From Chiloscyllium plagiosum (lineage: Eukaryota): 64,000 bases of DNA. The DNA lies in assembly GCF_004010195.1 (NCBI RefSeq), contig NC_057718.1, positions 104,162,342 through 104,226,341 of the forward strand, read 5' to 3'. Below, in pieces: positions 4,208 through 63,630 of this stretch; the first letter of the stretch is position 1; the number at the start of each line of letters is the position of its first letter. The position numbers and the translations under genes were made by a program. The notes below the pieces were generated by a model. That model worked only from the letters and a program-made list of their open reading frames with translations. It was not told the origin of the DNA and ran no database searches.

Positions 4208-4778
4208 TCAGGCAAAGGTGAGTACTGCAGATGCTGGAGATCAGAGTCAAGATTAGAGTGGGCCTGGCAAAGCACCGCAGGTCAGGCAGCATCTGAGGAG
4301 CAGGAAAATCGACGTTTCAGGCAAAAGCCCTTCATCAGGAATGAGGCTGGGAGCCTCGGAGGTGGAGAGATAAATGGGATGGAGGTGGGGCTGGGGGGGA
4401 AGGTAGCTGAGAGTGCAATAGGTGGATGGAGGAAGAGGTAAAGACGATAGGTTGGAGAGGAGGGTGGAGTGGATAGGTGGGAAGGAAGATTGACAGGTGG
4501 GACATGTCAAGAGGGTGGTGCTGAGCTGGAAGATTGGAACTGGGGTAAGGTGGGGGGAGGGGAAATGTGGAAACTGGTGAAGTCCATATTGATGCTCTGG
4601 GATTGGAGTGTCCCGTGGCGGAAGATGAGGTGTTCTTCCTCCAGGCGTTGGGTGGTGAGAGAGTGATGGTGGAGGAGTCCCAGGACCTGCATGTCCTCAG
4701 TAGAGTGGGAGGGGGAGTTGAAATGTTCAGCCATGGGGCAGTGTGGTCGATTGGTGCAGGTGTCCCGGGAATGTTCCC
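4208..4778 (-). mobile_element. Penelope-like element family A, 5'-truncated (GIY-YIG C-terminus plus terminal repeat)
   Basis: ORF 4507..4734(-) AEHFNSPSHS..LEEEHLIFRHGTLQSQSIN; TSD ggctgagtac at 4198-4207 and 4779-4788. Confidence 0.9.
4305..4342 (-). ncRNA. Minimal type I hammerhead ribozyme (PLE family A)
   Basis: Minus strand auuc-CUGAUGA-A-GGGC-uuuu-GCCU-GAA-ACGU-C-gauu: intact core, stem II, ACGU palindrome, GUC cleavage triplet. Confidence 0.8.
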
Positions 4779-5019
4779 GGCTGAGTACCTGTCAATGGGC
4801 TTCGGGTCATGCCGAGTCTCCCATTGTTCGATATGCAATCCAGGTCTGGGCTGGGCCCTGTTGGTCTCTGACCTGCAGTAACCCTGGTCTATTTGCAGTC
4901 CATCAGACCTTGCTTGCAGAAACTGTTCAGCCAATTTAATGTTGGGCCTGGCTGCTTAGGCCATTGGCCACATTTCCTTCCATTTAATTCTGCTCTTATG
5001 AACATTTCTAGCTTTTGTC

Positions 5020-5225
5020 ACTCTGCCTTTGGAGGATTTGACTTTCCCAAGTTACCCGGGCCCTAAACTCTGGAACTCCATCCATACACCTCTCCCTCTG
5101 TGATTAACACACTCATTAACACACACCTCTTTAACCAGGCTTTCACTCCCCTGCTCTGATATCACTTTATCTGAATCAGTGTTGAATTTATTTGAAGATT
5201 GTTCCTACTGAAGCACATTGGGAAT
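5020..5225 (+). mobile_element. L2 LINE 3' end fragment
   Basis: gccctaaactctggaactcc..cctctttaaccaggctttc motif, shared with 27370 and 41660. Confidence 0.65.
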
Positions 5226-7980: not shown

Positions 7981-7986
7981 CTTAAA

Positions 7987-9330
7987 ACCATATGACATAG
8001 GAGTAATGTAGGCCATTCAGCCCATCAAGTCTGTTCTTGCCATTCAGTCAGATCATGGCTGATCTGATATCCTCAATATCACTTTTCTGCCTTCTCCCCA
8101 AGATCCTTGCTTATCCCTTAATGATTTGAAATCTGTCTATCTCAGCCTTGAATACACTTAACAACTAAGCCTCAACAGTACTCTGAAGTAAATAATCCAC
8201 ATACTCAGCACCAGCATTGTGTACCTTTACTGCCTCCAATGCCAGTATATTTTCCCTTAGATAATGGGGACCAAACCGTTCACAGTATTCCAGTTGTGGT
8301 CAAACTAGTGCCCTGTATAGTTTTAGCAATAAACTGCCCTATGTCTATACTCCATTCCCTTTGAAATAAAGGCCAACATTCCATTTGCCTTCCCTATTAC
8401 CAGCTGAACTTGGATGTTAACTTTTTGTGGCTTATGCATGAGGATTCCCAAATTCCTCTGTTCTGCAGCTTTCTGCAGTCTGTCTCTATTTAAATAATAT
8501 TCACCTCCTTTGTTCTTCCAGCCAATGTGCATAACTTCACATTTCCCCACATAACAGTCCATCTATCAAGTTTTTACCCACTCTCTTCACAGTCTATATC
8601 CCACTGCAGATTCTTTGTGCAATCCTCACTATTAGCCTTACCACCTGTTTTACGTCATCCACAAACTGGCTCTACTACATTACTTTACAATATATATTAC
8701 TGACTTGGATGAGGAAACAATGGTGACCCCAGCACTGATCCCTGTGGTACTCCACCAGTAACAGATTGCCATCCCCCCTTATCCTAACTCTCTGTCTTCT
8801 ATTAGTTAGCCTATCCTCTATCCACTCTCTTATACTACTACATTACATCCACTACTCCCCTTTATCTGTCCTCCTGATGAGCTCCTCAAAGAATTCTAAT
8901 AGATTTGTCAGACATGTTTTCCCCTTCATGAATCCATGCTGACACTACATGACTATATTGTGTTTCTAACTGCTCTGCTATTACATCCTTTATAATAGAT
9001 TCCATCATTTTCCCAATAACAGATGTTAAGCCAATTGGCCTATAGTTACCTGTTCCTTTTGGAATAATGATATTACATTGGCAGTTTCCCAGTCCTCTGA
9101 GGATTCCTGGAAGATTACTACCAGTGCATCCACAATCTCTGTAACTATTTCCTTTAATATCCTACAACCCATCAGCTCCAGGGAACCTATCAGTCTTTAG
9201 CCCTATTAGTTTCTATGCCATATTTTCTCCACTAATTGTACTTATTTCATCTCCTCCCCTTGCTCTTTGATTATTTCATAATTTTGGAATGTTATTAATG
9301 TAACCAACTGTGAAGAATTTCTTCAATTCC
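7987..9330 (-). mobile_element. Decayed CR1 LINE with internal deletions
   Basis: ORF 8323..8562(-) VGKCEVMHIG..KANGMLAFISKGMEYR; CR1 3' tail at ~7990-8100. Confidence 0.88.
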
Positions 9331-10599: not shown

Positions 10600-12430
10600 T
10601 TTGTCACAATGTTGAAGAATAACTATATTGTCAAAGTATAACTGTGTAACTGTATTATTGTATGGTATCAGGGTAATTATAATGGTACAGTGTAACAGTG
10701 TTGTCACAGTGTAACTATGTAATTGTAATAAAACAGTGTAATAGTATTGTCACAGTACAGTGTAACAGTATTTTCACAGTGTAACTGTGTAATTGTAATG
10801 GTACAGTGTAACAGTATGGTCAAAGTGTAACTGCGTAATTGTAATGGTACAGTGTAACAGCACTGCCAATGTGTAACTGTGTAACTGTAATGGTACAGTG
10901 TAACAGTATTGTCACAGTGTAACTGTGTAACTGTAATGGTGCATTGTAACAATATTAAACAGTGTAACTGTGTAAATGTAATGGTACAGTGTAACAGTAT
11001 TGTCAAAGTATAACTGCATAATTGTAATGGTAAGTGTAACAGCATTGTCAAAGTGTAACTGTGTAATTGTAATGGTACAGTGTAACAGTATTGTCAAAGT
11101 GTAACTGTGTAAATGTAATGGTACAGTGTAAAAGTATTGTAACAGTGTAACTGTGTAATTGTAGTAATACAGTGTAACAGTATTGTCACAGTGTAACTGT
11201 GTAATTGTAACAATACAGTGTAACAGTATTGTCGCAGTGTAACTGTAATTGTAATGGTACAGTGTAACAGCATTGTCAAAGTGTAACTGTGTAATTGTAA
11301 TAATACAGTGTAACAGTATTGTCGCAGTGTAACTGTAATTGTAATGGTACAGTGTAACAGCATTGTCAAAGTGTAACTGTGTAAATGTAATGGTACAGTG
11401 TAACAGTATAGTCAAAGTGTAACTGTGTAACTGTAATGGGACAGTGTAACAGCATTGTCACAGTATAGCAGTGTAACTGTAATGGCACAGTATAACAGTA
11501 CTGTCAAAGTTTAACTGTGTAATTGTAATGGTACAGTTTAACAGTATTGTCACTGTGTAACTGAGTAATTGTAACAATACAGTGTAACATTACAGTCACA
11601 GTGTAACTGTGTAATTGTAATAGTACAGTGTAATAGTATTGTCAAAGTGTAACTGTGTAACTGTAATGGTACAGTGTAACAGCATTGTCACAGTATAGCA
11701 GTGTAACTGTAATGGTACAGTATAACAGTACTGTCAAAGTTTAACTGTGTAATTGTAATGGTACAGTTTAACAGTATTGTCACTGTGTAACTGAGTAATT
11801 GTAACAATACAGTGTAACAGCATTGTCAAAGTGTAACTGTGTAATTGTAATAATACAGTGTAACAGTATTGTTGCAGTGTAACTGTAATTGTAATGGTAC
11901 AGTGTAACAGCATTGTCAAAGTGTAACTGTGTAATTGTAATAATACAGTGTAACAGTATTGTCGCAGTGTAACTGTAATTGTAATGGTACAGTGTAACAA
12001 TATTGTCACAGTGTAACTGTGTAAATGTAATAGTACAGTGTAACAGTATTGTCACAGTGTAACTGTGTAACTGTAATGGTACAGTGTAACGGTATTGTCC
12101 CAGTGTAACTGTTTAACTGTAATGGTACAGTGTAACAGCATTGTCACAGTGTAACTGTGTAATTGTAATAGTACAGTGTAACAATATTGTCACAGTGTAA
12201 CTGTGTAAATGCAATGGTACAGCATGACAGTATTGTCACAGTGTAACTGTGTAACTGTAATGGTACATTATAACAGTACTGTCAAAGTGTACCTGTGTAA
12301 TTGCAATGGTACAGTATAACAGTATTGTCACAGGGTAACTGTATAATTGTAATGGTACAGTGTAACAGCATTGTCACAGTGTAGCAGTGTAACTGTATTG
12401 TTGCAGACTAGCTGTATTATCACAGTGTCA
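10600..12430. repeat. Minisatellite, 46-bp unit gtaatggtacagtgtaacagtattgtcacagtgtaactgtgtaatt (~39 copies)
   Basis: Unit read directly; 44-bp variant units; internal tgtaa sub-repeats. Confidence 0.97.
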
Positions 12431-12974: not shown

Positions 12975-13710
12975 ATAGAGTCATAGAGATGTACAGCATG
13001 GAAACAGACCTTTCAGTCCAACCCATCCATACTGACCAGATATCCCAACCCAATCTAGTCCCACCTGCCAGCACCCGGCCCATATCCCTCCAAACCCTTC
13101 CTATTCATATACCCATCCAGATGCCTCTTAAATGTTGCAATTGTACCAGCCTCCACCACATCCTCTGGCAGCTCATTCCATACACACACCACCCTCTGAG
13201 TGAAAAAGTTGCCCCTTAGGTCTCTTTTATGTCATTCCCCTCTCACCTTAAACCTATGCCCTCTAGTTCTGGACTCCCCAAACCCAGGGAAAAGACTTTG
13301 CCTACCCATCCTATCCATGCCCCTCATAATTTTATAAACCTCTACAAGGTCACCCCTCAGCCTCCGACGCTCCAGGGAAAACAGCCCCAGCCTGTTCAGC
13401 CTCTCCCTATAGCTCAAATCCCCCAACCCTGGCAACATCCTTGTAAATCTTTTCTGAACCCTTTCAAGTCCAAGGTGTTTTTGTTCAGCAACACTCCCTA
13501 GGACCTTACCATTAAGGGTATAAGTCCTGCTAAGATTTGCTTTCCCAAAATGCAGCACCTCGCATTTATCTGAATTAAACTCCATCTGCCACTTCTCAGC
13601 CCATTGGACCATCTGATCAAGATCCCATTGTAATCTGAGGTAACCCTCTTCGCTGTCCACTACACCTCCAATTTTGGTGTCATCTGCAAACTTACTAACT
13701 GCACCTCTTG
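12975..13710 (-). mobile_element. CR1 LINE 3' portion (RT C-terminus, internally deleted)
   Basis: ORF 13232..13717(-) SKFADDTKIGG..WQMEFNSDKCEVLHFG..LERRRLRGDLVEVYK. Confidence 0.95.
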
Positions 13711-14649
13711 ATGACAAAAAGTAGAGAAGGTCAAATTACGCACACTCGTCTCAACATTTAATTTTACAATGTTCTGATGTCTAAGCAGACCGAACCAATG
13801 TGCTGAGTATTCACAGTGGTGTTTCCCACCCTTCCACCCCCACCCTCACCCCCAACCCCCGTTTTGCTGAGTGTGTTATGATGGAATACTGGGCAGCATT
13901 ATCTTCCATCATCAGGCATTCCCACCTGCCCAGACAGATCCCAATCCCAGTGTCTCTGTAACCGCACAGAACCAAGAAATGTTGGGAAGTCAGAACACAA
14001 AATATGATAACATTGCAGTGACTTGAGAACAATGACACAATGATCCCTGAGAGACCATCAGGTAGCACACGGCAATTCACAATTAAATGCATTTACAGCA
14101 GGGTTGTGTACATTCTTGATAATTGGAGAGGGGATGGAAGGTTTTTGGGGATGGGGGGGGGTGATTTGGTGGAGTAATCAGGTGGAACAGGTTGACCAGG
14201 CAAAGTGGGGTTTTGAAGTTGATCCATTTACTGAATTCAAACCCAGAACTGAAACACAGAACACAGCAGCAAAGAAGGGGGATCATTCAGCCCATCATAT
14301 GATCATGACAAGTTCCTCAATCCCATGTTGCAGTATTTGATCCATCGCCCACAGGTTCTGGCATGGGGTGAGCAGGGGTGGTTCCTGCCTGCCTTTCCTC
14401 CCTGATTTCAGGCAGTGAGTCCCAGATGCCAACCACTCTCAGGATGAAAATAACTTTTCTTCATCTCCCTCCAATAATTCCAGGCTGCCTCCTCACTGGC
14501 CTCGCTGCTCAGGTAAACAAACCTTTCCCATCCATTTTACCCAGGCCCCTCACACCTTGATCAATTCTCCCCTTGACTCTAGGGAGAAAAGGCCCAGCCA
14601 ATCCAGCCTTTCCTCAAGTTTCCCCCATCCTGTGAATCCCCTCGGCACC

Positions 14650-15420
14650 AGTCCATAGATCCCTGAAGGTCCTCACTGGTGAAGGAGGCTTTTGAAATGC
14701 CTGCTTTCATCAGCCAGTGGAATATATGAGCAAGGAAGTCTTGGTCAGGTCACAGCTGGAGTACAGTTCGCAATTCTGGTCGCCACACTATTGGAAAGAC
14801 GGGATTGCGCTGGAGATGGTGCGGAGGAGTTTCACCAGGACATTGCCTGGGATGGAATGTCCCAGTTATGAGGAGAGACTGGACAGGTTGGATTTGTTTT
14901 CCCCAGAGCAGTGGATGCTGAGGGGTGGGAATCTGCTGGAGGTAGACAACATTAGGAGAGACACAGAGTGGATCGCGCGAATCTTTTCCCGCTGGCAGAT
15001 GTATCTAAGACCAGAGGACAGAGGTTTAAGGTGAGGAATAAGTTATTCAGAGGAATCTGAGGAAAGATTATTTCACTCAGAGGCTGCTAGAAATATGGAA
15101 GGTTGGGAAGGTACTCTCACACTATTTTAGAAGCAGCTGAATTTACCCTTAAAATGCCGGGGCATAGCAGGCAATAACCCAAGCGTAGGTAAGTGGGAAT
15201 AGTGTTGTTTGGTTCTGACAATGAGGCACTGCAATCAAAATGCTAACTCCATTTCTCCCTCCACAGATGCTGCCAGACCTGAGTTTCTCCAGCACTTTCT
15301 GATTTTGTTTCGGGTCTCCAGCATCTGCACAAATTTGTTTTATTTCAATGTAGTTTGGTGTTTGTTAGTCGGCATTGATGTGGTGGGCCGAAGGACCCAG
15401 TTCTGTGCTGTCTGACTCGA
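14650..15420 (+). mobile_element. CR1 LINE 3' portion interrupted by a PLE repeat; opposite-strand CR1 fragment at 14265-14650
   Basis: ORF 14717..15034 LVRSQLEYSSQFWSPHY..YEERLDRLDLFS. Confidence 0.88.
15214..15348 (+). mobile_element. Short PLE family C insertion with TSD
   Basis: TSD tgttgtttggt (15203-15213) / tgtagtttggt (15349-15359); starts at a degenerate CUGA core. Confidence 0.75.
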
Positions 15421-19759: not shown

Positions 19760-21075
19760 ATGATGACTCTGTCAGGCCAACAGCAGCAGAATTGTTCTCC
19801 ATCACAATCTGTAGCCTCATGGCCCAGCATATCACCCACTCAACCATCACCATCAAGCCTGGGGATCAACCCTGGTTCAATGGAGAGTGCAGGAGGGCAA
19901 TGCCAGGAATAAGGTGGAGGTGGGTACTGCAGATGCTGGAGATCAGAGTCAAGATTAGAGTGGTGCTGGAAAAGCACAGCAGGTCAGGCAGCATCCGAGG
20001 AGCAGGAAAATCGAAAAACCCTTCGTCAGGAATGAGCCCTCATTCGAGGTCTAACTGACAGTTATTACTGAAGGAGGGCTCAGTCCAGCCAAGTGATTTC
20101 CAGGAAATTAGTTACAATGAAATTACCTAAAATATCCAAATAGCATTTCAAACAATATCAGAAACCGGACACATTCTCTACGTTACTCTCTGGCTGCAGG
20201 CAAGGAAACAGAGCTATAGGGTGACAACATTTCTGCATCTAATATTCTTAATAGCCCAAATTCCTGGGCTTAATTTGGTCTTAAACTAAATTTAGTCTTT
20301 AACTAAATACCTAATTGCTAATATATCCAGGTAATAAACATACATTAACATGATGTAAGAGAATTATCGAGGTATCAGTTTCAGATTCCTTGTCCTACAA
20401 ACATATAAAACCTAATGAAGAACCCAGATGCTGCCTGATCTGCTGTGCTTTTCCAGCACCACTCTAATGCCAGGAATAACATTGGGCATATCTAAAAATA
20501 AGGTATCCACCTGTTGAAGCTACCAAACAAGACCACTACTGTGTCAAACAGTATGAACAGCAAGTGATAGAGCTAAGTGATCCACATCCATGAATCAGAG
20601 CTAAGCTCTGCAGTCTGCCACAATGGTGGTTGACAATTAAACAACTGACTGGAGGAGTAGGCTCCACACACACCCCATCCTCAATGATGGAAGAGCCCAG
20701 TACATCAGGGCAAATGATAAAGCTGAACCTTTTGCAGCAATCTTCAGCCAGAAGTGCTGATTGGTTGATCCATCTCTGCCTCCTCCATTGGTCCCCAGCA
20801 TCTCAGATACAAATCTTCAGCCAATTCGATTCACTCCACATGATACCAATAAACGGTTGGAGACACTGGATACAGCAAAGGCTATGGGCCCTGACAATAT
20901 TCTGGCAATAGCACTGAAGGCTTGTGCTCCAGAACTTGCAGCTCCCCGAGCCAAGCTGTTCCAGTACAGTTACATCACTGGCACCTACCCAGCATTATGG
21001 AAAATTACCCAGCTATGTCCTGTACATAAAAAGCAAGACAAATCCAACCCGGCCAATTACCTCCCCATCAGTCTA
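19760..21075 (+). mobile_element. CR1-group (Crack/Zenon-like) LINE ORF2 fragment, interrupted
   Basis: TITIKPGDQPWFNGECRRA before the insertion; LDTAKAMGPDNI..APELAAP..PVHKKQDKSNPANYLPISL after it. Confidence 0.88.
19913..20465. mobile_element. Composite PLE family A insertion: terminal repeat + captured local DNA + inverted terminal-repeat fragment
   Basis: TSD aatgccaggaataa at 19899-19912 and 20466-20479; PLE repeat 19921-20036, inverted repeat fragment 20426-20468. Confidence 0.9.
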
Positions 21076-21087
21076 CAATTTAAGGCT

Positions 21088-21178
21088 TCTGCAGAAGGGT
21101 CAGACTGGACTTGAAACGTTAACTCAGTTTGTCTCTCCACAAATGCTGCCAGACTTGCTGAGTTTTTGTAGCATTCTA
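21088..21178 (+). mobile_element. PLE family C terminal repeat with degenerate hammerhead
   Basis: tctgcagaagggtcagactggacttgaaacgttaactc. Confidence 0.7.
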
Positions 21179-23810: not shown

Positions 23811-24485
23811 GAAAAGATGAGAATCTGTGGTCTCTTTTTGGTGCACCTAATTCAAGTATGTATATCGTATTGTCAATTTTAAACAAAGGTTACCACTGCT
23901 GACCTTAAAAGATTTAAAAAGATAATTCTCAAAAGGTCCCTGTCTCTTTAATTTTTTTTTACAAGGGGAGTTTGATATTATTTCACTCACATTGGTAATT
24001 GCATCTTGGTCAGGTTCAACGTTGCAGAAAATTAGTGAAATGCTGAGGGAATAATGAAGGTGATGGTGTTCATTACAGTGCAGCAATAAATAGCAGCCTT
24101 TATTGTTAACGTACTTATAAAACCGGGAGTCTTAATCAAATCACTAGATGTTCTCCTCAACCTTGACAATAGAATTTACAATGCTAATCGTTGCAGAACC
24201 ACCAGAGTTTGCAAATTGGTGGCTAGCGTGCAGAGTAGTTTTAAAACATTAAAATAAACTGAGGGTGGAACGGTGCATTTGAGTATGGTGGGCTTTAGCA
24301 TCTGTCCTCAGCCTTGTGGGGTTTTTTGTTTGTTTGTTAGTTCGTTACAAAACTGACAATGCATGCTCACCCACTTTGTGATGCTGTCCAAGGGGAATGA
24401 GCATGCCACTGAGGCTATTGCTGTCCTGTTGCCCTGAATAATCCCCTGACTCAAGTCAGAATACCGGCGAAAGTGATTACTGCCC

Positions 24486-24572
24486 TTCCTGATGAACAGC
24501 TTTTAACCGAAATGTCGATTTTCCTGCTCCTCGGATGCTGCCTGACCTGCTGTGCTTTCCCAGCAACACACT
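24486..24572 (+). mobile_element. PLE family A terminal-repeat fragment (hammerhead stem II disrupted)
   Basis: cctgatgaacagcttttaaccgaaatgtcgattttcctgctcctcggatgctgcctgacc. Confidence 0.85.
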
Positions 24573-25239
24573 CACCCCCACCACCCCTCATCCCAAATCT
24601 GAATCTGTGTAAATGCCCCCACTAGTGTTTACTTTGGTCATGTAGAATGCATCCATTAACCCGTCAGGTCACACATCCCAGATAAACCCCTCCCCCCTTC
24701 TGAATTTCCTACTTACTCTCATAAATCGTTTTTGTTGCCATTTGAATTTTACTTTTGTTATCCCCCTCATTTTGTTGTTGTTTCTTTATTTATGGTGTAA
24801 ACCCACATTTCTACATGAGGGCTGGATTTCCCCAGCTTCTCGGTGATGGTACAGGGGACAGGGCAGCTGGGGATGTGGAGGTTGGGGGAAAGGGGGGGAA
24901 AGGTGCTGAGAGGAGACTGCTGTTATCAGCAGTGGGTACCCTCATGGCAACAAGACCCAATACGTGTCTAATTGAGCCACTGAAATGCCCAATTAAGGGC
25001 CTGTTTGCCTAGTTCAGGAGGTCCTGCCTTTGTACCAATGCACCACAACCACTTCCTCTCCTGCCTCCAATTGCCAGTCTCTACTCTGATTAAACATGGA
25101 AATATAGAGGGGGCCACTCGGCCCATCAAACCCACTCCACCATTCAACATTATCAAGGCACACATGACATGGGTGGAGAAAAATATCCTGGGGAAACACA
25201 GTCCAATAGCACCAGTCTGCAGTATTCAATGAAGTGCCC

Positions 25240-32178: not shown

Positions 32179-32302
32179 TGAAAAATTTGTGGGTGGAAAA
32201 GGGCTTATGCCCGAAACGTCGATTCTCCTGTTCCTTGGATGCTGCCTGACCTGCTGCGCTTTTCCAGCAACACATTTTCAGCAGTCCTCACTTTCTCCTC
32301 GA
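32179..32302 (+). mobile_element. Short PLE family A insertion with 17-bp TSD
   Basis: TSD atattttgtaaaattgc at 32162-32178 and 32303-32319; contains aagggcttatgcccgaaacgtcga without CUGAUGA. Confidence 0.9.
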
Positions 32303-32376
32303 ATATTTTGTAAAATTGCCAGTTTCACTTTACAAACAGACAAAACAGGAGCAGGAGTGGACCACTTAGCCTCTCA

Positions 32377-32468
32377 AGGCGAAAGTAAGCACTGCAGATG
32401 CTGGAGATCAGAGTCAAGATTAGAGTGGTGCTGGAAAAGCACAGCAGGTCAGGCAGCATCCGGGGAGC
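32377..32468 (-). mobile_element. PLE family A terminal-repeat fragment inside a CR1 tail
   Basis: ctgcagatgctggagatcagagtcaagattagagtggtgctgg; flanking degenerate duplication ggagtggacca/ggagtagacca. Confidence 0.85.
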
Positions 32469-33334
32469 TGGAGTAGACCATTCAGGCCCTCCAACCTGCT
32501 GCACCGTTCAAGAAGATCATGGCTGATCCACTTACATTTCAAATTCCCGATAGTTTCTGATCCTTCTGCCAAACAAGATTCTATCCGCTGCTGTGTTAAA
32601 AATATTGACCCTGATGGATTATCCCCTACAACATGAGATCTTATCTTCCTCAGTAAGGCACCTTATTAAGTGCCTACTAGAAATCCAAGTAAATATTCCT
32701 CCTTTACCAACAATGCATTCCTTCAAAGAACTCCAATGAAATATGATATCCTTTGAGAAAACCAGGTAGATCCTGAGATCTTGAGCTTTTCTAAGTGTAT
32801 AATTTCTTTCGAACTCAATTCTAACCCCTTTCCCATGACAAATGTTGTTGTGAACGGCTGTGATGGGATTTGAACTCAGGTTTGAGAAAGGATTGAGGCC
32901 AGTGAGCTGAGAAATACAGTGTTACTCCAACCCCAAAGGACAATCCAACATGCAGTCAACTTCAACTCAAAGCTTCGGGGATTCAGGATAAATCCAGGGG
33001 CATTAATAACAAAGGTGACTGAAGGAGACAAAATGACAGGGGGAGAAATTGAACCACCTCATGCTTGTTTATTGGACATAAGAATAGCGTTGAGGTAGTA
33101 AACCCCACCAAACATGACTAATTCCTAAATCTGACCTATCCACAAAACAAAACCCCCTCAGAAATAATATTACACATTGCTGGTACAGCTGGAACGTCAA
33201 CCCAGGTCCCTGGCTCAGAGGTAGGGACACTACCACTGTGCCACAAGATTTCCTATGTCTGTACCAGTCCCACACTAAGTAACCCCCCATCTTGATAAAG
33301 GTGCTCCCACAGCCACTCACGCAGTGACCTAGCT

Positions 33335-34550: not shown

Positions 34551-35434
34551 ATAAAATCATTCGGGGGCAATAGCTGAGGGTTTAAAACGATAACAGATAT
34601 GCTTTCCCTTTCATACCTGTTCAGCTTTTTAATCCTTGCTCAGACAAGTTTTATTGGCAAATTAAACTTGACCACTGCATGTTGTTGTTTGCTCTGTTTT
34701 GTTTCTCACTGTAATATTCTCAAACCCCATACATCTGCTGGTGCAGACTATAAAGGCTGTAAATACATCAGAAGCATTAAGATGGACTGAATGCAAAGGC
34801 ATGGAGAAAGCATGCAGACGACAAAATAAATGGAACATGAAGAGAGACAGACAAGTGAATCTAAAACAGACACAGAAAGTGCTGGAGAAACTGACAAGGT
34901 GTCTGCAGAGAAAGAAACAAGAGTTAATGTTTCAAACCCAGTGACTCTTTGTCAGAACACAAACTGAAACAGCGAAAGTCACTCTCCAAACCAGAGGCCT
35001 TATATGATGCTAAATGTTTGATGTCAAAACTGTGTCTAATTTTAGATACAACATGTGAATTGGAATGTCTGAACGAAAAAGGATTGTATTGGAATTGTAT
35101 TTAATCAGGAAAAACATACAATCCCACTTGACCAACGTGTGTTGTAGACTAAACAATTACAACCGTGTGTATGGCCTGTGAGGATTCCCAAAAGAGCTGA
35201 AAGTCAAGATGAGGGGATAGTGCTCAAACTATTACGTGTTACTACAAGCATGTGAATGACATTTTTTGAATCCCAGCCAAATCCTGCTGTTTTATATGAA
35301 AGCAGTTTCCTCAGAAATTGACAGAGAATATGATACTTTTTCTTTTCATGTCAAGCTATGTCATGGAACATTGTAAAAAGATCAGGTGAAGCTGGTGACC
35401 TAGGCTGGACTACTGTGAGCGTTGTCAGAGATTA

Positions 35435-35652: not shown

Positions 35653-35940
35653 TATGTGGAGTTTGACAATAAATCCCACCTTTCAAGAGTTATGGGGTTA
35701 ATGGATGTGCCAGGAACTTCAATTCAGATTAAGTATTCATTTATATAGCGATTAAAATAACATTCACTGGATTTCCACTAAGTTGGGGTCGCTTTGGAGC
35801 ACTTCAGAAATTATGGATAAGTGCCAATTCCAGGATTCCTGACCGCATTCCTGATTTTCATAAGGACTAGGGAAGGGTGCAATGAGGTTCAGGTCATGTG
35901 TCTCGACCCTGCATTCCTGACCTTAGCAGCTCCTTTATGC

Positions 35941-36103
35941 AGGAGAAAGTGAGGACTGCAGATGCTGAACAGTCAGAGTTGAAAAGTGTGGCGCTGGAAA
36001 AGCACAGCAGGTCAGGCAGCATCCGAGGAGCAGGAAAGTCGACATTTCAGGCATAAGCCCTTCATCACCTTCCTGTGCTTTTCCAGCGCCACACTTATCG
36101 ACT
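35941..36103 (-). mobile_element. Short fold-back PLE family A insertion with TSD
   Basis: TSD cagctcctttatgc (35927-35940) / cagctcccttatgc (36104-36117); internal inverted gtgtggcgctggaaaagcacag / ctgtgcttttccagcgccacac. Confidence 0.9.
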
Positions 36104-50974: not shown

Positions 50975-51113
50975 AAGTTAAAAATCACACAACACCAGGT
51001 TAGAGTCCAACAGGTTTATTTGGAAGCACTAACTTTCAGAGCGCTGCTCCTTCATCAGGTGGTTGTAACTTTGTACACCCCAGTCCAACACCGGCACCTC
51101 CAAATCATGACAG
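50975..51113 (-). mobile_element. PLE family B terminal-repeat insertion with hammerhead
   Basis: Minus strand cac-CUGAUGA-A-GGAGC-agc-GCUCU-GAA-AGUU-A-gug; TSD agaatctca on both sides. Confidence 0.85.
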
Positions 51114-51470
51114 ATAGAATCTCAGGATTGTTAAGGTGCAAAAGAAAACAGTTGGCCCATCATTCTGCATTGGATAGCACCTGATTGCCTGTCCAGCCCA
51201 GTTATGGCGGTATTGAACTGTGTAATTTTGATTCTCAAGGAGCAGGAAGATCAGACGATGGCTAGCTCTGCTGCACTTGTAAATCATTCAAGTAACTGGT
51301 TTTTAAAATTCCCATATTCCCCCATGTGATGGAAAATAAAATTCACATGTGGAGATGGTTTCAATCGATTGCAACGTGTCCCATGTAAAGTCCCATGAGT
51401 ACGATGTGGTAGCCACATCTGCCCACTGCCCTAGCAGGGCTCAAATGAAGTGTGGACATGGTAAAGGGGC

Positions 51471-51670
51471 CAGCAGGTCAGGTAGCATCAGAGGAGCAGG
51501 AGAGTCAACGTTTCGGACAGGATCCTTCATCAGGAGTGAAAGAATCCTGATGAAAGGTTCCAACCTGAAACACTGACTCTCCTGCTCCTCTGATCTTACC
51601 TGACCTGTGCTTTTTCCAGCTCAACACTTTATTTACTCTGACTTTCCAGCACCTGCAGTCCTCACTACCT
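51471..51670. mobile_element. Fold-back PLE family A-like insertion with two opposed hammerhead cores
   Basis: ..tttcggacaggatccttcatcagga gtgaaagaa tcctgatgaaaggttccaacctgaaac..; degenerate flanking duplication agggctca(a/g)atgaa. Confidence 0.85.
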
Positions 51671-52082: not shown

Positions 52083-52230
52083 GAGAAAGTGAAGGCTGCA
52101 GATGCTGGAGATCAGAGCTGAAAATGTGTTGCTGGAAAAGCGCAGCAGGTCAGGCAGCATCCAGGGAACAGGAGAATCGACGTTTCGGGCATAAGCCCTT
52201 CTTCAGGAATTTCGGGCATTAGCCCTTCTT
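52083..52230 (-). mobile_element. Short PLE family A insertion, intact hammerhead at 52175-52210 plus a tandem second core
   Basis: TSD cacagttggttaga (52069-52082) / cacaattggttaga (52231-52244); minus strand CUGAAGA-A-GGGC-uuau-GCCC-GAA-ACGU-C. Confidence 0.92.
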
Positions 52231-53043
52231 CACAATTGGTTAGACCATGATCTTATTAAATGGCAGGGGGGCTGAATGGCCTACTCCTACCCTCAGTTTG
52301 TATGTTCATGTCTGCATCAAAGACACAAAAAATGCACCTACGGCCGATGTGTAGCTGTCTGAAAATGAAATCAAAACAAGCAGGATAAAGGAGTCAACAA
52401 AGGGCCAGAGAGTACAGGCTGAAACCTGTTGTAGCTGGTGGTGTTAAGTTCAGAATGCTGTGAAGTGCCTGGCTGATAGCTGAACTGATGACATTGTCTT
52501 TGTTGCAAAGTCCCCAGCTCCCATTGTACAAATCAAACAGCAATTCTGCCGTGCAATCAATGCTGAGGAAACACACACAATATTTCACCTTATGTGCAAG
52601 TTGTATAGCCTAAGGCAAGAAACAGATGAGCTGGTTTCATTGAGCTCAATACAGAGATGAACCTGGATGAACCAAACAGCCTCGCTGCAGCTAGCTTTTA
52701 TTCCGATTAGTCTATGTACAGAGTCGCTTGTGCAGCATAAACTTTGCATTTTAGGAAGAAATGTTGTACAAAAATTGTCATTAATCTGAAGAACTACATT
52801 CATGAATGAGGCAACGGATAGATTTTTCACGTGAGCAAGCACTTCAAACAGTGCAAAAAGCAAACTTAACCGAGGTGGGTGTTGTTGATTCGAGAGTAGC
52901 ATGGTGATAATGTCACTGGACTAGTGATCCATATGTGCTTGGGAATGTGGGTTCAAATCCTCACATACCAACTGGCAGAATTTAACTTCAATTAAAAATC
53001 TGGAATTGAAAGCTAGCTTCAATGATTGCAGCCACAAAATTGA

Positions 53044-56310: not shown

Positions 56311-58555
56311 TGGGAATACCTATCGCTAGGTTCTATAAATTTTTCAGCACCACACTCTTCGACTCTATAAAATAAAACTTGGACGTTCTTTCAAAAGATG
56401 TCATTCAGTAAGGCTGTTACAGAATGCGCAGTCCATAAGTAAGTGTTTGCCTTCCATTTGTCTTTAGAGGTATCAGGTGAAAACCTAACACAACTCTCCT
56501 TATTACATAAGAAATTAGGCATTGGTAACCTGGTATTGAAGAATCCAACAGACATTTATTATGGTTCACTTATACACACAAACATTACGTCTGAGCTAAA
56601 GTTAAGTTAGTAAATTACACAGAACAGCATTCTTCAAGAAATGTGTCATGCTTCAGGATTCCTCGTAAGATGAGGTCCATGATCTTTACACCCTTAGATC
56701 ACACGCAGGCATATACTGACGATATTATGAATATGTCTCTTACAGGTATGCAGCACCAAGTGACCATGAGGCAGAACACAATAGACTCTCTTTCAGGCAA
56801 CACATAAATGTCAAGACTAAACCCAATTTGGGAATATTGTGGCATTACACTCAAAGATAGTTTGCTGTGAAATGCAATCAGAAAATAAAGTGATGAATTG
56901 CTCCTTGATTTTGGCCTGTTTTAAATAACTAGCAATATTCATAAATGTTATTCATTAACTGTGTTACTACATTCAGAAATACTGACAAGATTAATAACTA
57001 GGTATGGGGTCCTAATAAACTGCACATGTTAAGTGTAAACATTGAGAAATCTTCACTTCAGAAATTAAAGGGAACCCCTTGGCCAGGAACCTCAACAACA
57101 AACCAGTCTCCCGTATCATGTGATAGCTTCAGGTAACCAAATTAATGGGATGCAAGTGACACTGGGATTCGAGGATGCCGCTGTGATCGAATACTGAAGC
57201 ACAGCAAAGAGCTGAGTTAAACTCTACAGAGTGATTTCTTTGTGGCATTGGGGGAAGCAGGTGTTATCTTCTGGGGTCTTCCCAAAGGCTGCTCACTTCA
57301 AACCTTCCAGTTACTTCAGAGGAAAAAAATCCTGATTGATTTCTCCAATTTATGAAAGGCTGTACTCTTCAATAAAACACGGTTTACATATTCAAACACT
57401 GAGGAGAATACACTCAGCATGCCGTTAAACTCTCCTTTTGACAACCAATAGTAACAGACCAACCCTAACTAACAATGATTGCGAACCTTTTTAAATCAGG
57501 GGATATTGTACAGAGTTACTCTCTGAGCCACAGGAGAATCCTTTGTTTTCACAATCAGTCATCTGCATCTCTTCTAAGTCATTCCATATCACAAATTATT
57601 CTTCGAATGGAGCAAGCAAACTGTCAACTTGAATCTAATGTCAAACTGGAAGAATAATCAGCAGAAGAGAGTCCACAAAAGAGCTCCCAGAGTAATTTTT
57701 TAAATTTTGTATAATCAACAACAGATGACAAACATTAAAAATGTTCTCAGATTCGAAATAAGCATCTGTTCTGTTGCTTCCCTGATTAAAACTGAAAAGC
57801 TGTTCCTTTAGTTTCTCTCCTCATCTCATCCATGTCCTCTCATTTCATCTTAAAACCAATCTACTCTGTCCTTGATCATATTCCAAATAAACTGATAATC
57901 ATAACCCTCTCTTCCCTGGCCCTCATGTTAACATCCGAAGTAATTCTCTCAACACAGCTACTGTCCCCGGTCCTTCCCAAACAGCCCTATCCTCACTCAC
58001 CACAGTTACTGTCTCCTTGCTGCTATCATCCCATCACCAAACTTCAACCCCTGGTTATCTCAAAGGTCCTCACCTCCAGCCTTTGATCTCTATGTCGTCA
58101 TTGTCCACAGGAATAGTGCCAGAAGACTGAAGGATAGCAAATGTTGTCCCTTTGTTCAAGAAGGGGACTAGAGACAACCCTGGTAATTATAGACCAGTGA
58201 GCCTTACTTCGGTTGTGGGTAAAGTATTGGAAAAGGTCATAAGAGATAGGATATATAATCATCTTGAGAGGAATAAGTTGATCAGGGATAGTCAACATGG
58301 TTTTGTGAAGGGTAGGTTGTGCCTCACAAACCTGATTGAGTTTTTTGAGATGGTGACCAAATAGGTGTTTGAGAGTAAAGTTGTTAATGTGGTATATGGA
58401 TTTCAGTAAAGCATTTGATGAGGCTTCCCACGTTTGGCTATTGCACAAAATATGGAGGCATGGGATTCAGGATGATTTAGCGGTTTGGATCAGAAATTGG
58501 CTAGCTGAATGAAAACAGAGGGTAGTGGTTGATGGGAAATGTCATCCTGGAGTTC

Positions 58556-58776
58556 TGATTTGGAGATGCCGGTGTTGGACTGGGGTGTACAAAGTTAAAA
58601 ATCACACAACACCAGGTTATCGTCCAACAGGTTTAATTAGAAGCACACTAGCTTTCGGAGCGACACTCCTTCATCAGGTTATTGTCACAATCACCTGATG
58701 AAGGAGCGACACTCCGAAAGCTAGTGTGCTTCCAATTAAACCTGTTGGACTATAACCTGGTGTTGTGTGATTTTTA
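58556..58776. mobile_element. Palindromic PLE family B insertion with a hammerhead on each strand
   Basis: TSD atcctggagttc at 58544-58555 and 58777-58788; 90-bp inverted arms centred on 58686. Confidence 0.93.
58692..58726 (+). ncRNA. Minimal type I hammerhead ribozyme (PLE family B)
   Basis: CAC-CUGAUGA-A-GGAG-cgaca-CUCC-GAA-AGCU-A-GUG: stem I CAC/GUG, AGCU palindrome, CUA triplet. Confidence 0.8.
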
Positions 58777-58893
58777 ATCCTGGAGTTCAGTTACTACTGG
58801 TGTACCGCAAGGATCTGTTTTTGGGCCACTGCTGTCTATCATTTTTATAAATAACCTAGATGAGGGCATAGAAGGATGGGATCGTAAATTTGC

Positions 58894-60324
58894 CAGGAGA
58901 AAGTGAGGACTGCAGATGCTGGAGATCAGAGTCAAGAGTGTGTTGCTGGAAAAGCACAGCAGCTCAGGCAGAGGGCGGTGCTGAGCTGGAATGTTGGAAC
59001 TGGGGTAAGGTGGGGGGAGGGGAAATGAGGAAGCTGGTGAAGTCTACCTTGATGCCCTGGGGTTGAAGTGTTCCGAGGCAGATGATGAGGTGCTCTTCCT
59101 CCAGGCTAGCTGGTGGTGAGGAGTGGTGATGGAGGAAGCCCAGGGCCTGCATGTGTTCAGCCACGGAGCGACGGGGTTGATTGGTGCGGGTGTCCCAGAG
59201 ATATTCTCTGAAGCACTCTGCGAGAAGGTGTCTTGTCTCCCCAATGTAGAGGAGACCACATCGGGAGAAACGGATACAATAAACAACATTTGTGGAAGCG
59301 CAAGTAAAGCTCTGATGGATATGGAAGGTTCCTTTGGGGTCTTAGATGGAGGTGAGAGGGGAGGTGTGGGCGCAGGTTTTGTGATTCCTGCGGTGGCAGG
59401 GGAAGGTGCCAGGATGTGTGGGCTGATGGTGGGGTCCATTTGTGGTTGGTGGAAACGGCAGAGAATGATGTAATGTATACAGCTTTGCTTGTAGAGAGAG
59501 GAGGAGAACTTCTTCAAGGTAGGCATCTGTATACATCGTGTCACCCACTGCCATTTCTGACACCTATAAACGGACCCCACCACCAGAGGTATATTTCCCT
59601 CCCCAACCCTATCCGCTGTCTGTAAAGACCATTCCCTCCGAGGTTCCCCGTCAGATCCACACCCTCCCCCACCCAACCCACCCTCCCCTCCCAGCACCTT
59701 TCTCTGCCACCTCAGGAATTGTATCCGTTGCTCCCAATGTGGTCTCCGCTACGTTAGGGAGACAGGATGCCTACTCTCAGAGCGCTTCAGAGAATATCTC
59801 CAGTATACCTGCGCCAACCAACCCCATCGCCCCGTGGCCGAACACTTCAATTTCCCCTCCCGCTCCACCAAGGACACACAGGTGCTGCACCTCCTCCATG
59901 GCCATACCCTAACCACCTAATGCCTGGAGGAAAAACACATCATCATCTGCCTTTGAACCCTCCAACCTCAGGGCATCAATGTGGATTTCACCATTTTCCT
60001 CATCTCCCCTCCCCTCACCTTGTCCCAGATCCAACCCTCCAGCTCAGCACCACCCTCATGACCTCTCCTACCTGTCCATCTTCCTTCCCACCTATCCACT
60101 CCACCCTCCCCTCTGACCTATCACCTTCACCCCCACCTCCTCCACCTATTGTACTCTCAGCTACCTCGGCCCCCCCCCCAGCTCCACCCCTCTACCATTT
60201 ATCTCTCCACCCCCGAGGCTCCCAGCCTCTTTCCTAATGAAGGGCTTTTGCCTGAAACATTGATTTTCTGCTCCTTGGATGCTGCCTGACCTGTTGTGCC
60301 TTTCCAACACCACACTCTTGACCA
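58894..60324. mobile_element. Inverted two-arm Penelope family A insertion with GIY-YIG remnants
   Basis: Minus arm FTCASTNVVYCIRFSRCGLLYIGETRHLLAECFREY; plus arm CIRCSQCGLRYVRETGCLLSERFREY; terminal repeats at both ends; TSD gtaaatttgc 58884-58893 / 60325-60334. Confidence 0.92.
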
Positions 60325-60365: not shown

Positions 60366-60525
60366 AGGTCTGGCAGCATCTGTGGCAAGAAATCAGAGTT
60401 AACGTTTCAGGTCAAGTGACCCTTAATCAGAACTTGCTTGAACTCAAAATGTTAACTCTGTTTCTCTCTCCACAGATGCTGCCCGACTTGCAAAGGTACC
60501 TCAGTATTCTCTGGTTTTGTGTGTT
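60366..60525. mobile_element. Fold-back PLE family C repeat
   Basis: ggcagcatctgtgg..cagagttaacgtttc versus aaaatgttaactctg..ccacagatgctgcc. Confidence 0.75.
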
Positions 60526-60584: not shown

Positions 60585-60910
60585 AAAACGCCCCTCACTC
60601 AAAACCATCTCCCTCCTGCCATCTGACAGAAGATACCAGAGCATTCGGTCTCTCTCAGCCAGACTGTGCAACAGTTTCTCCACCCAAGCCATCAGGCTCC
60701 TTAACACAATATAATTGGGCTTTTTCCCATCTGAAATTCTTTGATTTGCTGGTAGAACAATGTCTATTAATTAACATTCTTTTATTTTACTGTACTTTGC
60801 TTGTTTTGCACTTCTTATGCACTTTCTGCCGCCTGTGTAGTTTGCGCTGTCTGTGTAGTATTTGATCCTGGAGGAACGCGGTCTCATTTTTACCATAGAA
60901 ATGACAAATA
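60585..60910 (+). mobile_element. Rex1/Babar LINE 3' end
   Basis: LLPSDRRYQSIRSLSARLCNSFSTQAIRLLN. Confidence 0.85.
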
Positions 60911-61799
60911 ACATCTGCTTATTACTCTAGCTCGACTATTCATGGATAGAGTAATCTTTGCTCTCTCTATGGGAATGGTAATCCTGTTTCAGACTCGATA
61001 GAATTCATTTGCTTTTTATGTCTTCCTCAATAATGAGCCCATTTTCTGCATTGTAAAGTTTTGATCGTGCTGCTCCATATACAGTTTGGACAGGGATTTG
61101 AGCCTCCCATCAGTTCACAGGAAACATGCCTGATCTTTACAAACCTAGGGGTGACACTCAGATTGTTGAGAAAACTGGCAACGTAAACTGTTTATGACAT
61201 TCTGTGCAAAGTGACCCCATCCCAGCTCAATTACGTTATAACTTATTTACAAGCGAAGTATAAGCCAGGTAATTGGAGGTAAGTCAAAGTCATTCAGATG
61301 TATTACACTGATAACTAGTAACGAACAACCTGACCTACAGAGGGAGAGAATGAGGTACCAACAGCATAGAGTACCATGATCAGCTGGTCACAGTCCAACA
61401 TGTCAGTCTCAACGCTATGATGGCAGCTCCTCACTGTTATACCCCACATAAATAATATCTGTTAGAGATTAACAAGGTCAGAAAAGCAGCACACAGAAAG
61501 TAATAGGCATCATAATCGTAATTAGCAAATTGTTACATTCCCCAAGTAATTTGTGCCTTTAATGTAATAAAACGACACAAGGCACTTCCTAGAAGTGTTA
61601 TCGAACAAAGTTAGACAGCAAGTCATGATAAATAAAAGTGAAAAATGCTGGAAAAACCTAGCAGGTCTGGCAGCACCTGCAGAGAGAAAAACACTTAATT
61701 GTTTCAGTCAGCTGCCGAAAAATTGAAAAAAGAATCAGTTTTAAGGAGCATCTTAAAGGAAAAAAGGATGGTGCAAAGGCAGAGAGTAACGGGAGGGAG

Positions 61800-63630
61800 T
61801 TTTATTCATTCATGGGGCGTGGGCTGGCAGGGTCAGCATTTATTACCCATCCCTAGTTGCCCCTTGAGAAGGTGGGGGTGAGCTGCCTTCTTGAACCACT
61901 GCAGTCCATGTGCTGTAGATAGACCCACAATGCCCCTTAGGGAGGGAATTCCAGGATATTGACCCAGCGACACTCAAGGAAGGTTGATATATTTCCAAGT
62001 CAGGATGGTGACTGGCTTGGAGGAAAACTTACAGGTGCAGGTGTTCCCATGTATCTGCTTCTAGATTAGAGTGGTGCTGGAAAAGCACAGCAGGTCAGGC
62101 AGCATCCGAGGAGCAGTAAAATCGACCTTTCGGGCAAAAGCCCTTCATCAGGAATACAGGCAGAGAGCCTGAAGAGTGGAGAGATAAATGAGACTGGGGT
62201 TGAAGTGTTCCGAGGTGGAAGATGAGATGTTCTTCCTCCAGGCGTCTGGTGGTGAGGGAGGCCCAGGACCTTCATGTCCTCGGCAGAGTGGGAGAGGGAG
62301 TTGAAATGTTGGACCACAGGGCGGTGGGGTTGATTGGTGCAGGTGTCCCAGAGATGTTCCCTAAAGCGCTCTGCTAGTTTTTACCATGTATTTGTTTCCC
62401 CTGTCCTTCTGGATGGAAGGAGTTGTGGGTTTGGAAGGTGCTGTCTGAGGATCTTTGGTGATTTCTGCAGAGCCTCTTGTAGATAGCACACACTGCTATG
62501 TCGATGGTGAAGGGAGTGGATGTTTGTGGATTTGGTGCTAATCAAATGGGCCGCTTTGTCCTGGATGAGCTTCTTGAGTGTTGTTAGACCTGCACCCATC
62601 CAGGCACCCTGTGCCTTGTAGATGGTGGACAGGCTTTGGTGAGTCCGGAGGTGAGTTACTCACAGCAGTATTCCCAGACTCTGACCTACTCTTGTAGCCC
62701 CTGTGTTTATATAGCTGGGTCCAATTGAGTTTCAATGATAACCTCCAGCACTTTGATAGTTAGGGATTCAGTGATATTCTCTCGTATTGGAGGTGGTCTT
62801 TGCCTGATATTTGTGTGGCATGGGTGTTCAGTCAGCTGTTCTCCATTTGTAGCTCATCCTGAAGAAGGGTCACAGGACTCAAAACATTAATTCTGCTTTC
62901 TCTTTACAGACTTTGCCAAGTCTGATTAGTTTCTCCAGCAATTTCTGTTCCTGTTCCAGATTTTCATCATCTGCAGTACTTCAATTTATTTTACTGGATA
63001 ATGTTCATTTCTTGTTAGATTTGGACTTCTCTACCTGAGGAGTGGCGAATGGTGTGAACATTGTAATCATCAGCGAACATCCCTACTTCAGTCCTTATGA
63101 TAGAGAGAAGGTCATTGATGAAGCAGCTGAAGATGGTTGGGCCGAGGACACTATCCTGAGGAACTCCTGCAGAGATGTCCTGGAGCTGAGATGACTGACC
63201 CTCCAACAACCACAACCATCTTCCTATGTGCCAGGTATGATTCCGACCAGTGAAGAAGACCCAGTGGCTCCAATACCCACTGATTTCAGTTTTGCCAGGG
63301 CTCTGTGATGCCATACTCAGTCAAATGTAGCCGAAATGTCAAGGGCTTACCCTCTCTCTTTCCCTCTGGAATTCAGCTCTTTTGTCCATGTTGGGATGAA
63401 GGGTGTAATGAGGTCAGGAGCTGAATGGCCCTGGTGGAACCCAAACTGGGTGTCACTGAGCAGGTGCTGCTTGATAGCCCCTGTGGATGACCCCTTCCAT
63501 CACGTTACTGATGATTGAGATTAGACTGATGGGGCGGTAATTGGCTGGGTTGGGTTTATGCTGCTTTTTGGGTACAGGACATACCTGGGCAATTTTCCAC
63601 ATTGTCAGGTAGATGCCTGTGATGTTGCTG
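61800..63630 (-). mobile_element. CR1-group (Crack/Zenon-like) LINE, interrupted by PLE copies at 62062-62378 and ~62850-62993
   Basis: WKIAQVCPVPKKQHKPNPANYRPISL; AGVPQDSVLGPTIFSCFINDL..GMFADD. Confidence 0.9.
62062..62378 (-). mobile_element. PLE family A fragment with hammerhead core (62117-62155)
   Basis: VQHFNSLSHSAEDMKVLGL; minus strand CUGAUGA-A-GGGC-uuuu-GCCC-GAAAGGUC. Confidence 0.88.

Follow-up and report, generated by a model that had tools for sequence, protein, structure and literature searches.

Hammerhead motifs in the window

The stretch analysed here, called the window throughout, comprised 64,000 nt of the Chiloscyllium plagiosum genome (contig NC_057718.1; G000:C9:104162342-104226341) and held many short copies of Penelope-like elements (PLEs) that carry hammerhead ribozyme motifs. 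The genome searched for related copies comprised 3.56 Gb in 101,977 contigs. We read the elements as insertions, 5'-truncated and inverted head to head, from at least two PLE lineages with four hammerhead families, bearing at their 3' ends minimal type I hammerheads that likely cleave inefficiently, as dimers, in the elements' own RNA (probability about 0.85). The window copies are relics, and the families are new, while the kind, minimal PLE hammerheads, is known.

The core pattern CTGANGA...GAAA was matched 15 times in the window against 4.27 expected, and none of 100 dinucleotide shuffles reached 15. With a stem II of at least 3 bp added to the descriptor, 11 matches were obtained (mean 2.0 and maximum 7 in 100 shuffles), and 5 with a 4-nt palindrome after GAA (shuffle mean 0.09, maximum 1). 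Chance occurrence of the motifs was rejected on these shuffle tests. A covariance model, R1, based on 38 copies of families A and D from elsewhere in the genome, was run on the window without filters. At a threshold of E<1e-3, 12 sites were found, at 52169(-), 4301(-), 62114(-), 51540(+), 51497(-), 60227(+), 36031(-), 24482(+), 32194(+), 60391(-), 20003(-) and 62852(+). R1 is blind to family B, of which 58687(+), 58639(-) and 51022(-) were identified beyond it, and the two sets together gave 15 hammerhead regions. BLAST with the unit references produced 36 clusters, 12 of which were opposite-strand artefacts of the family C reference; the remaining 24 fragments and one detected by R1 alone made a total of 25. 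The density thus amounted to one hammerhead region in every 4.3 kb and a fragment in every 2.6 kb, and the figure of about 20 copies given by an initial annotation of this DNA was fair when tail-only and degenerate pieces were counted.

The catalytic core was intact at 8 sites. Core, stem II and 4-nt palindrome were all kept at 5 of the 15 regions, namely 4338(-), 51533(-), 52206(-), 58677(-) and 58695(+). Near-intact sites were 62151(-), with AGGU, 51058(-), with AGUU, and 51547(+), with ACAC, and the other hammerhead regions showed a mutated core, an internal deletion or a truncation. All five cores cited in the initial annotation were present, one of them, at 51022-51066(-), with AGUU instead of AGCU. 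The shared layout it described, CUGANGA, an unpaired A, a stem II of 4-5 bp, GAA, a 4-nt palindrome and H, could be seen at 4301-4345(-), 52169-52213(-), 58639-58685(-) and 58687-58733(+). Its families A, B and C were likewise real, C occurring at 60391-60437(-) and 62852-62898(+), both core-mutated, and a fourth family, D, could be added. Stem II reads GGGC/GCCC in A, GGAG(C)/(G)CUCC in B, GGGUC/GACCU in C and AGGU/ACCU in D, the family D pair at 51.5 kb reading AGGU/ACCU and GGAU/GUCC. Among genome copies the modal unpaired nucleotide that separates position 9 from 10.1 was A in every family. At 15.2-16.2, the palindrome of family A is ACGU, that of B is AGCU and that of D is ACAU, without a stable helix III; ACAU is a CpG-decayed ACGU.

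Conservation of the core and pairing of the helices

Pair counts were taken from a register-based table of 153 non-window copies, picked by homology from 184 rows; the 31 rows dropped comprised 12 from the window and 19 that had indels or another register. Aligning all families jointly with MAFFT had shifted B one column out of register, and that alignment was unused for pair counts. In the table, stem II consists of G-C/G-C/G-C/C-G in A, G-C/G-C/A-U/G-C in B and A-U/G-C/G-C/U-A in D, and three of its four pairs differ by double changes between A, B and D. In helix I, A and D have U-A at pair 2.2-1.2 and B has A-U there, and pair 2.3-1.3 is U-A in A3, C-G in B, G-C in D and a U-U mismatch in A1; pairs 2.1-1.1, 2.2-1.2 and 2.4-1.4 were kept at 80-97%. 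The earlier statement that the helix sequences differ between families and still pair was borne out by these double changes in stem II and helix I.

Covariation was assessed on a model-aligned set of 121 R1 matches of families A and D from 87 genome loci, in which stem II was 94.4% paired. Pair 17-31 was GC in 60 copies, AU in 28 and GU in 28, pair 20-28 was CG in 81 and UA in 35, and double-sided changes at these two stem II pairs were present in 29 and 35 sequences, respectively. The covariation score was 0.232 against a shuffle mean of 0.159, with 0 of 500 shuffles as high, and slid partners scored at most 0.082.

The core was intact in 23/35 genome copies of A1, 12/14 of A2, 5/6 of A3, 6/7 of A4, 36/44 of B1, 8/11 of B2 and 14/24 of D. 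At non-CpG sites, conservation of the core against the other positions was 0.977 vs 0.905 in A, 0.955 vs 0.833 in D and 0.986 vs 0.948 in B1. Decay was greatest at CpG positions, including C11.1-G12 and the palindrome ACGU. In A, B1 and D the core is better conserved than its flanks, and therefore the hammerhead reading stands. By analogy with published motifs, this motif is predicted to cut RNA weakly and in pairs.

Penelope-like element identity and insertion architecture

Using tblastn, endonuclease remnants could be identified in four A-lineage copies of the window, at 4469-4779(-), 58935-59356(-), 59696-60105(+) and 62195-62377(-). The same kind of search with PLE reverse transcriptase (RT) frames revealed no PLE RT left in the window, and Pfam analysis of its 148 open reading frames (ORFs) of at least 75 aa gave no PLE domains, just four weak RVT_1 fragments. 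These fragments, at 8889-9161(-), 13235-13735(-), 58131-58361(+) and 63018-63320(-), had no match to either PLE RT lineage (tblastn, 1e-4) and are probably remnants of other retroelements.

The coding capacity of the elements was read from genome loci. In L024, an RVT_1 frame (E 5.9e-6) and a GIY-YIG frame (24 bits, cut-off 22.6) lie directly 5' of an A hammerhead. The B-lineage locus L120 has YIDD RT and endonuclease frames, and in L115 the end of an endonuclease is followed by a B hammerhead about 1 kb downstream. A second, distant PLE lineage is found about 0.65-1 kb upstream of family B, the identity between lineages A and B being 32% in the RT and 30% in the endonuclease. No RT was found upstream of two other B copies, both truncated with unrelated flanks. 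An RT followed by a C-terminal GIY-YIG domain, in the motif's orientation, is documented by L024 and by L120 and L115, and the window has endonuclease remnants only. Long 'open frames' in four long A-lineage loci were rejected as an effect of N. In the 3' untranslated region (3'UTR) of the B lineage (L053-L078), about 150-700 nt upstream of the hammerhead, a long CA/GACA microsatellite follows the stop codon.

First-look candidate counts in the genome, to be taken as lower bounds, were at least 1145 for the A query, at least 1637 for B, at least 2508 for D and at least 54,655 for the RT. Genome copies were 88-96% identical in A, 97-100% in B (full-length matches) and 83-88% in D; the three families differ in age.

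When A copies were aligned with their flanks, the 3' end was fixed and the 5' side was of three kinds. Some copies run on into a conserved upstream region, which is the end of the PLE ORF; others break off a few bases on the 5' side of CUGANGA, in many cases with an 8-17 bp target-site duplication; and in the third kind the hammerhead is the point at which a head-to-head inverted partial copy is attached. The B copies end at ...GATTTTTAA or 37 nt beyond. Within the window, 32194(+), 52083(-) and the D and B pairs have readable target-site duplications. Truncation at the 5' end, inverted arms, target-site duplications and an optional tail were all observed in genome or window copies; the last three are listed hallmarks of PLEs (PMC8557442, PMC4209133; here and below, statements credited to published work refer to the available portions of the papers). 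The initial annotation had described terminal-repeat hammerheads of PLEs. The minimal type I form, the palindromic helix III and the PLE identity hold, and the motif position as shown here is the 3' ends.

Units and fragments in the window

An A1 unit, consisting of a hammerhead and a tail of about 111 nt, occupies 4209..4345(-) (R1 67.0 bits, E 1.9e-16). Its hammerhead (4301-4345, -) reads CUGAUGA-A-GGGCUUUUGCCU-GAA-ACGU-C, with an intact core and a GGGC/GCCU stem that includes one G-U pair, and its 3' end, '...CACCTTTGCCT', is common to the A copies of the genome. Upstream of this hammerhead, 4346..4779(-) holds the 3'UTR and a broken GIY-YIG remnant of the same A-lineage copy; aa 87-189 of the L024 endonuclease frame matched 4469-4779 (tblastn), and the region was 81% identical to 59830-60322. 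The A1 unit at 19918..20036(-) (R1 25.7 bits) has an internal deletion removing the 3' half of stem II and GAAACGUC, and an A-type tail fragment without a hammerhead was found by BLAST at 20425..20468(+). In the A-type unit at 24482..24573(+) (R1 35.7 bits) the core is present, with a degenerate stem II, CAGC/AACC, and the site AUGU. The A2 unit at 32194..32308(+) (R1 34.9 bits) is cut off within the hammerhead, without CUGANGA, and is bounded by a 17-nt target-site duplication, ATATTTTGTAAAATTGC. BLAST further identified an A-type fragment that extends from the stem II interior to the tail end (32377..32487, -), and the A2-type unit at 35940..36075(-) (R1 41 bits) has a core mutated to GGUGAUGA (C3 lost) and the site AUGU.

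A B2 unit lies at 50975..51108(-), with its hammerhead at 51022-51066 (GGAGC/GCUCU, AGUU-A) and an AAUAAA at 51015-51020. Before it stands an inverted copy, 46 nt long, of the end of the B tail (51063-51108), a layout also seen in L077. The family D head-to-head pair is bracketed by the target-site duplication AGGGCTCARATGAA. Its left arm, 51443..51540(-) (R1 46.4 bits), has a hammerhead at 51497-51540(-) with GGAU/GUCC, ACGU-U and an intact core; its right arm, 51540..51666(+) (R1 53.6 bits), has one at 51540-51584(+) with AGGU/ACCU and ACAC-U, the palindrome being lost. The A2 unit at 52083..52235(-) (R1 67.1 bits) carries a fully intact hammerhead at 52169-52213(-) (CUGAAGA, GGGC/GCCC, ACGU-C), and its 14-nt target-site duplication is TCTAACCAAYTGTG. 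Inside this duplication, the intact unit is preceded by a partial direct copy of the hammerhead 5' half (GAAGAAGGGCUAAUGCCCGAAA) at 52214-52235(-), which looks like a template jump within the motif.

The B1 head-to-head pair is bracketed by the target-site duplication CCTGGAGTTC. The inverted arm at 58556..58685(-), identified by descriptor and BLAST, bears the 37-nt tail extension and an intact hammerhead at 58639-58685(-) (GGAG/CUCC, AGCU-A). The direct arm at 58686..58780(+) has the short 3' end, an intact hammerhead at 58687-58733 and an AUUAAA at 58734-58739. Weak microRNA-like Rfam matches at 51500-51581 and 58644-58727 were rejected, as they represent head-to-head hammerhead pairs folding as hairpins and not microRNAs.

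A large head-to-head pair follows. Its left arm is an A-lineage copy at 58894..59356(-), with an endonuclease remnant (aa 38-190 matched by tblastn) and a tail, in which the hammerhead region is deleted (BLAST gap q230-449). The other arm, at 59696..60322(+) (R1 41.9 bits), is also an A-lineage copy with an endonuclease remnant; its hammerhead at 60227-60270(+), read from the sequence, is mutated to CCUAAUGA (G5 lost) and has ACAU. The family C head-to-head pair spans 60391..60487 (R1 28.8 bits), with one arm at 60391-60445(-), whose hammerhead region (60391-60437) has GGGUC/GACCU, ACGU-U and the mutated core CUGAUUA, and a partial arm at 60437-60487(+). An A1 copy with an endonuclease remnant occupies 62060..62377(-) (R1 59 bits), its hammerhead at 62114-62158(-) having an intact core, GGGC/GCCC and a non-palindromic AGGU. 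The C-type hammerhead region at 62852..62898(+) is degenerate (G12 to A; ACAU; R1 23.2 bits, E 3.5e-4). A weak C-type fragment was found by BLAST at 21087..21154(+), with just 11.7 bits by R1 at 21082-21130, and BLAST to the unit references gave further weak fragments at 3560-3602(+), 34912-34958(-), 15238-15329(+) and 61646-61675(-).

Other features of the window were a 46-bp tandem array at 10755-12428 (36.6 copies, 85% matches), the source of weak mir-33 and mir-4703 Rfam matches, and a 24/48-bp CA/GT-rich tandem array at 2004-3225, the source of long spurious plus-strand ORFs and of weak small nucleolar RNA and mir-297 matches. The third domain of TRIP4 was weakly matched by an ORF at 31655-31918(+) (E 5.4e-4, 20.7 bits, cut-off 27.7); if this ORF is an exon, as it may be, the repeats would lie in introns.

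U6 joints at the predicted cleavage site

Outside the window, copies of U6 small nuclear RNA (snRNA) joined to PLE tails were found. In 2 of the 30 best U6 matches (L127, L144) the U6 3' end runs straight into an A tail at G1.1. A search with the A pattern, in which joints from -43 to +7 were allowed, returned six places on six contigs with six tail variants, and all six were joined at G1.1; the single match of the B pattern was joined there as well. Reversed-pattern controls gave 0 matches. L127 is one variant copy beyond these 7/7 pattern matches. The U6-PLE loci are L127, L144/L153, L151, L152, L154, L155, L156 and L157, comprising six A variants and one B. Several of these insertions have target-site duplications around the whole, several have an inverted PLE arm, and in L153 the joint itself was copied in the inverted arm. 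The whole-insertion duplications and the copied joint indicate that the template was a chimeric RNA or its equivalent.

Such joints could arise if the 5'-OH product of the ribozyme were ligated to the cyclic-phosphate end of U6 and the chimera were then reverse-transcribed. Template switching at the RNA 5' end in place of ligation would fit as well. An alternative to cutting would be a transcription start at exactly that bond in each of the two unrelated families. A literature search gave no report of U6 snRNA joined to a PLE at the hammerhead bond. The joints provide an indirect record, in DNA elsewhere in the genome and not in the window, from which cutting in vivo may be inferred. On balance, we lean slightly towards the view that these weak, dimer-dependent PLE hammerheads do cut in living germ-line cells and that the families of the window have left their record of it elsewhere in the genome as U6 joints.

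Among the same 30 best U6 matches, about 11, as judged by eye, lead directly into the start of one tRNA-like repeat of the short interspersed nuclear element (SINE) type (GGGTGGCACGGTGGCTCAGTGG...), at L125, L132, L133, L137, L142 and L145-L150. In two more, L139 and L143, PLE endonuclease coding sequence comes after U6, and chimeras of U6 seem to be common in this genome.

RNA reads and the polyadenylation signal of family B

RNA reads were taken from run X5, a single-cell poly(A) library with the same species label; a second run, X6, gave no placed reads, and none of the listed records that contain the stretch was an RNA record. Reads placed on B copies are pooled from all genome copies at 90% likeness or more, and do not represent the window locus alone. 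The B units have AUUAAA or AAUAAA about 10-15 nt past the hammerhead cut site. In the region L057:1549-1570, poly(A) was seen after L057:1567 in 107 reads and after L057:1570 in 149 reads, positions 28-31 nt beyond the cleavage site. On the window copies it was seen after 58755(+) in 350 reads and after 51004(-) in 296 reads, 11-16 nt past the signal, and across the window copies and L057 the distance from the signal was 11-19 nt. A genomic A run at the poly(A) point was present in 0 of 50 B copies. The signal and the reads together indicate that sense B units act as polyadenylation sites somewhere in the genome.

Where copies begin

The 5' ends of 53 unselected tail-bearing A-type copies were located on the A reference, in which CTGATGA starts at 463. 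In 29 copies the end fell within 445-470, with a mode at 459-461; 11 extended further upstream, 6 ended inside the hammerhead and 4 in the tail. The 5' edge of the motif marks either a stop or the end of a discrete RNA. The short units, about 90-136 nt in length, could be copies of a discrete RNA with its 5' end 2-4 nt upstream of CUGANGA and not simple 5' truncations. That end could be the element's transcription start in the terminal repeat, with a jump between repeated ends, or the end of a short transcript mobilised in trans. The clustering of ends among the 53 copies favours this proposal, as do the target-site duplications that bound several such ends, the head-to-head arms that also join there, and the promoters and start sites that have been placed in PLE terminal repeats (PMC8557442, PMC6765202). 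Against it, the boundary may partly reflect loss of subfamily homology upstream of the conserved hammerhead, no extra non-templated G was present in the few joints read by eye, and the 11 longer copies, which run into the 3'UTR and ORF, exist. We regard a discrete RNA as a tentative proposal, less likely than not; it refines the explanation by truncated PLE insertions with 3' hammerheads and does not replace it.

Weighing of the evidence

Several observations weigh against PLE insertions with self-cleaving 3' hammerheads. Rfam gave 0 matches on the window at gathering score, and at E<=10 no hammerhead family was among its 25 window matches. The model-fitted alignment used for covariation leans towards the structure. 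Helix I is short, being 56.7% paired overall with its two outer pairs mostly unpaired, and the A1 U-U pair at 2.3-1.3 was paired in only 11%; a short helix I is also reported for minimal hammerhead ribozymes (PMC4209133). The RVT_1 scores of the L024 and B-lineage frames were below the Pfam cut-off. A 5' copy of the motif, in a pseudo-long terminal repeat (pLTR), was found in none of the readable parts of four long copies (N stretches of 1.3-2.9 kb). The 5' end lay within 5 nt of the cleavage site in only 3 of the 53 A copies, so cleaved RNA was rarely the template and most templates were uncut at this hammerhead. In X5, reads cross the B hammerhead at a depth of 243-352 with no pile of ends, and read starts or ends at cleavage sites formed no pile reaching a fifth of the depth; a poly(A) library would lose both cut products, the 3' piece being about 30 nt plus tail and the 5' piece having no poly(A). 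Published motifs of this kind cut as dimers via the palindrome, with monomer activity undetectable and dimer activity low in vitro (PMC4209133), and in the anole PLE hammerhead mutants were without effect on insertion in vitro (PMC11167929).

The last two of these reports, the absence of anole reads ending at the cut site in the data given there (PMC11167929) and the proliferation of Naiad elements without a hammerhead (PMC8557442) would also suit a motif kept for another role, for instance as a structure that the PLE protein binds or recognises, with no cutting in vivo. Exactly the catalytic nucleotides are, however, fixed across families with unrelated helices and tails, and the predicted scissile bond is where the U6 joints lie in 7/7 matches from two unrelated families; we consider a purely structural role improbable. 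Processing of PLE transcripts is the role that has been proposed for such motifs (PMC4209133, PMC6765202). The units were also considered as non-LTR retrozymes, in which tandem hammerhead repeats make circular RNAs. Such elements share the type I motif and are kin to PLE terminal repeats (Li et al. 2026, bioRxiv 10.64898/2026.07.22.740005), and one window copy has the partial direct duplication of the hammerhead 5' half. None of the six tandem-array rows of the window (periods 24/40/48, 46 and 69/104 bp) carries a hammerhead unit, and the copies, with coding remnants upstream, are fixed at the 3' end and variable at the 5' end, which makes this origin very unlikely.

For truncated PLE insertions with 3' hammerheads, the following course may be envisaged. 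The hammerhead would act on PLE transcripts once two sense copies pair through the palindrome, copying would proceed by target-primed reverse transcription from the element's 3' end, and the genomic copies would then be inert relics. The initial annotation had gone further and regarded the copies as able to affect any transcript crossing the locus. This view of the copies as active modules was not supported: just 5 of the 15 regions keep core, stem II and palindrome, a decay that is partly CpG loss, published activity is low and, as a weak point, reads span the sites.

Comparison with known systems

The motifs agree with the minimal hammerhead ribozymes of Cervera & de la Peña 2014 (PMC4209133) in the G10.1-C11.1 pair of A, B and C, in the short helix I and in a palindromic 15.2-16.2 with no real helix III. 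They agree also in the several consensus families per genome with compensatory changes, and in the mostly single truncated copies with close opposite-strand pairs. They differ in that the sequence families are new, this genome not being named in the available portions of that paper, that family D has A-U at 10.1-11.1, and that the motif is shown here at 3' ends only.

Canonical endonuclease-positive PLEs (Craig et al. 2021, PMC8557442; Frangieh et al. 2024, PMC11167929) share the heavy 5' truncation, the inverted 5'-truncated copy abutting the 5' end, the optional 'tail' of 30-40 bp at one end, here the 37 nt of family B, the hammerhead near the 3' end, and an RT followed by a C-terminal GIY-YIG domain. 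Unlike in these elements, no partial-tandem pLTR was seen in the readable parts of the copies here, and this sample showed a strong clustering of 5' ends at the hammerhead's 5' edge.

The U6 joints resemble the chimeras of U6 and long interspersed nuclear element 1 (LINE-1, L1) formed by RtcB ligation (Moldovan et al. 2019, PMC6789731), in which the U6 3' end is likewise joined to a retroelement RNA 5' end and inserted as a single unit with target-site duplications. The L1 joints are variable, whereas every joint found here is at the predicted hammerhead bond. A hammerhead cut would supply the 5'-OH needed by the ligase in the present case, where the joints are known from DNA outside the window alone. 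Animals reportedly have non-LTR retrozymes with a type I hammerhead, described by Cervera & de la Peña in 2020. The window is unlike these elements in having no tandem hammerhead arrays.

Biological meaning

The window itself matters little, as its copies, most of them broken, are relics of a retroelement class that is well described. The genome, with very many copies in families of different ages, offers natural covariation tests of the minimal hammerhead and a census of where copies begin. The U6 joints provide an indirect test of ribozyme cutting in vivo, a matter left open in the literature consulted. For the disturbance of host transcripts, the used poly(A) signal of family B is a likelier route than ribozyme cleavage.

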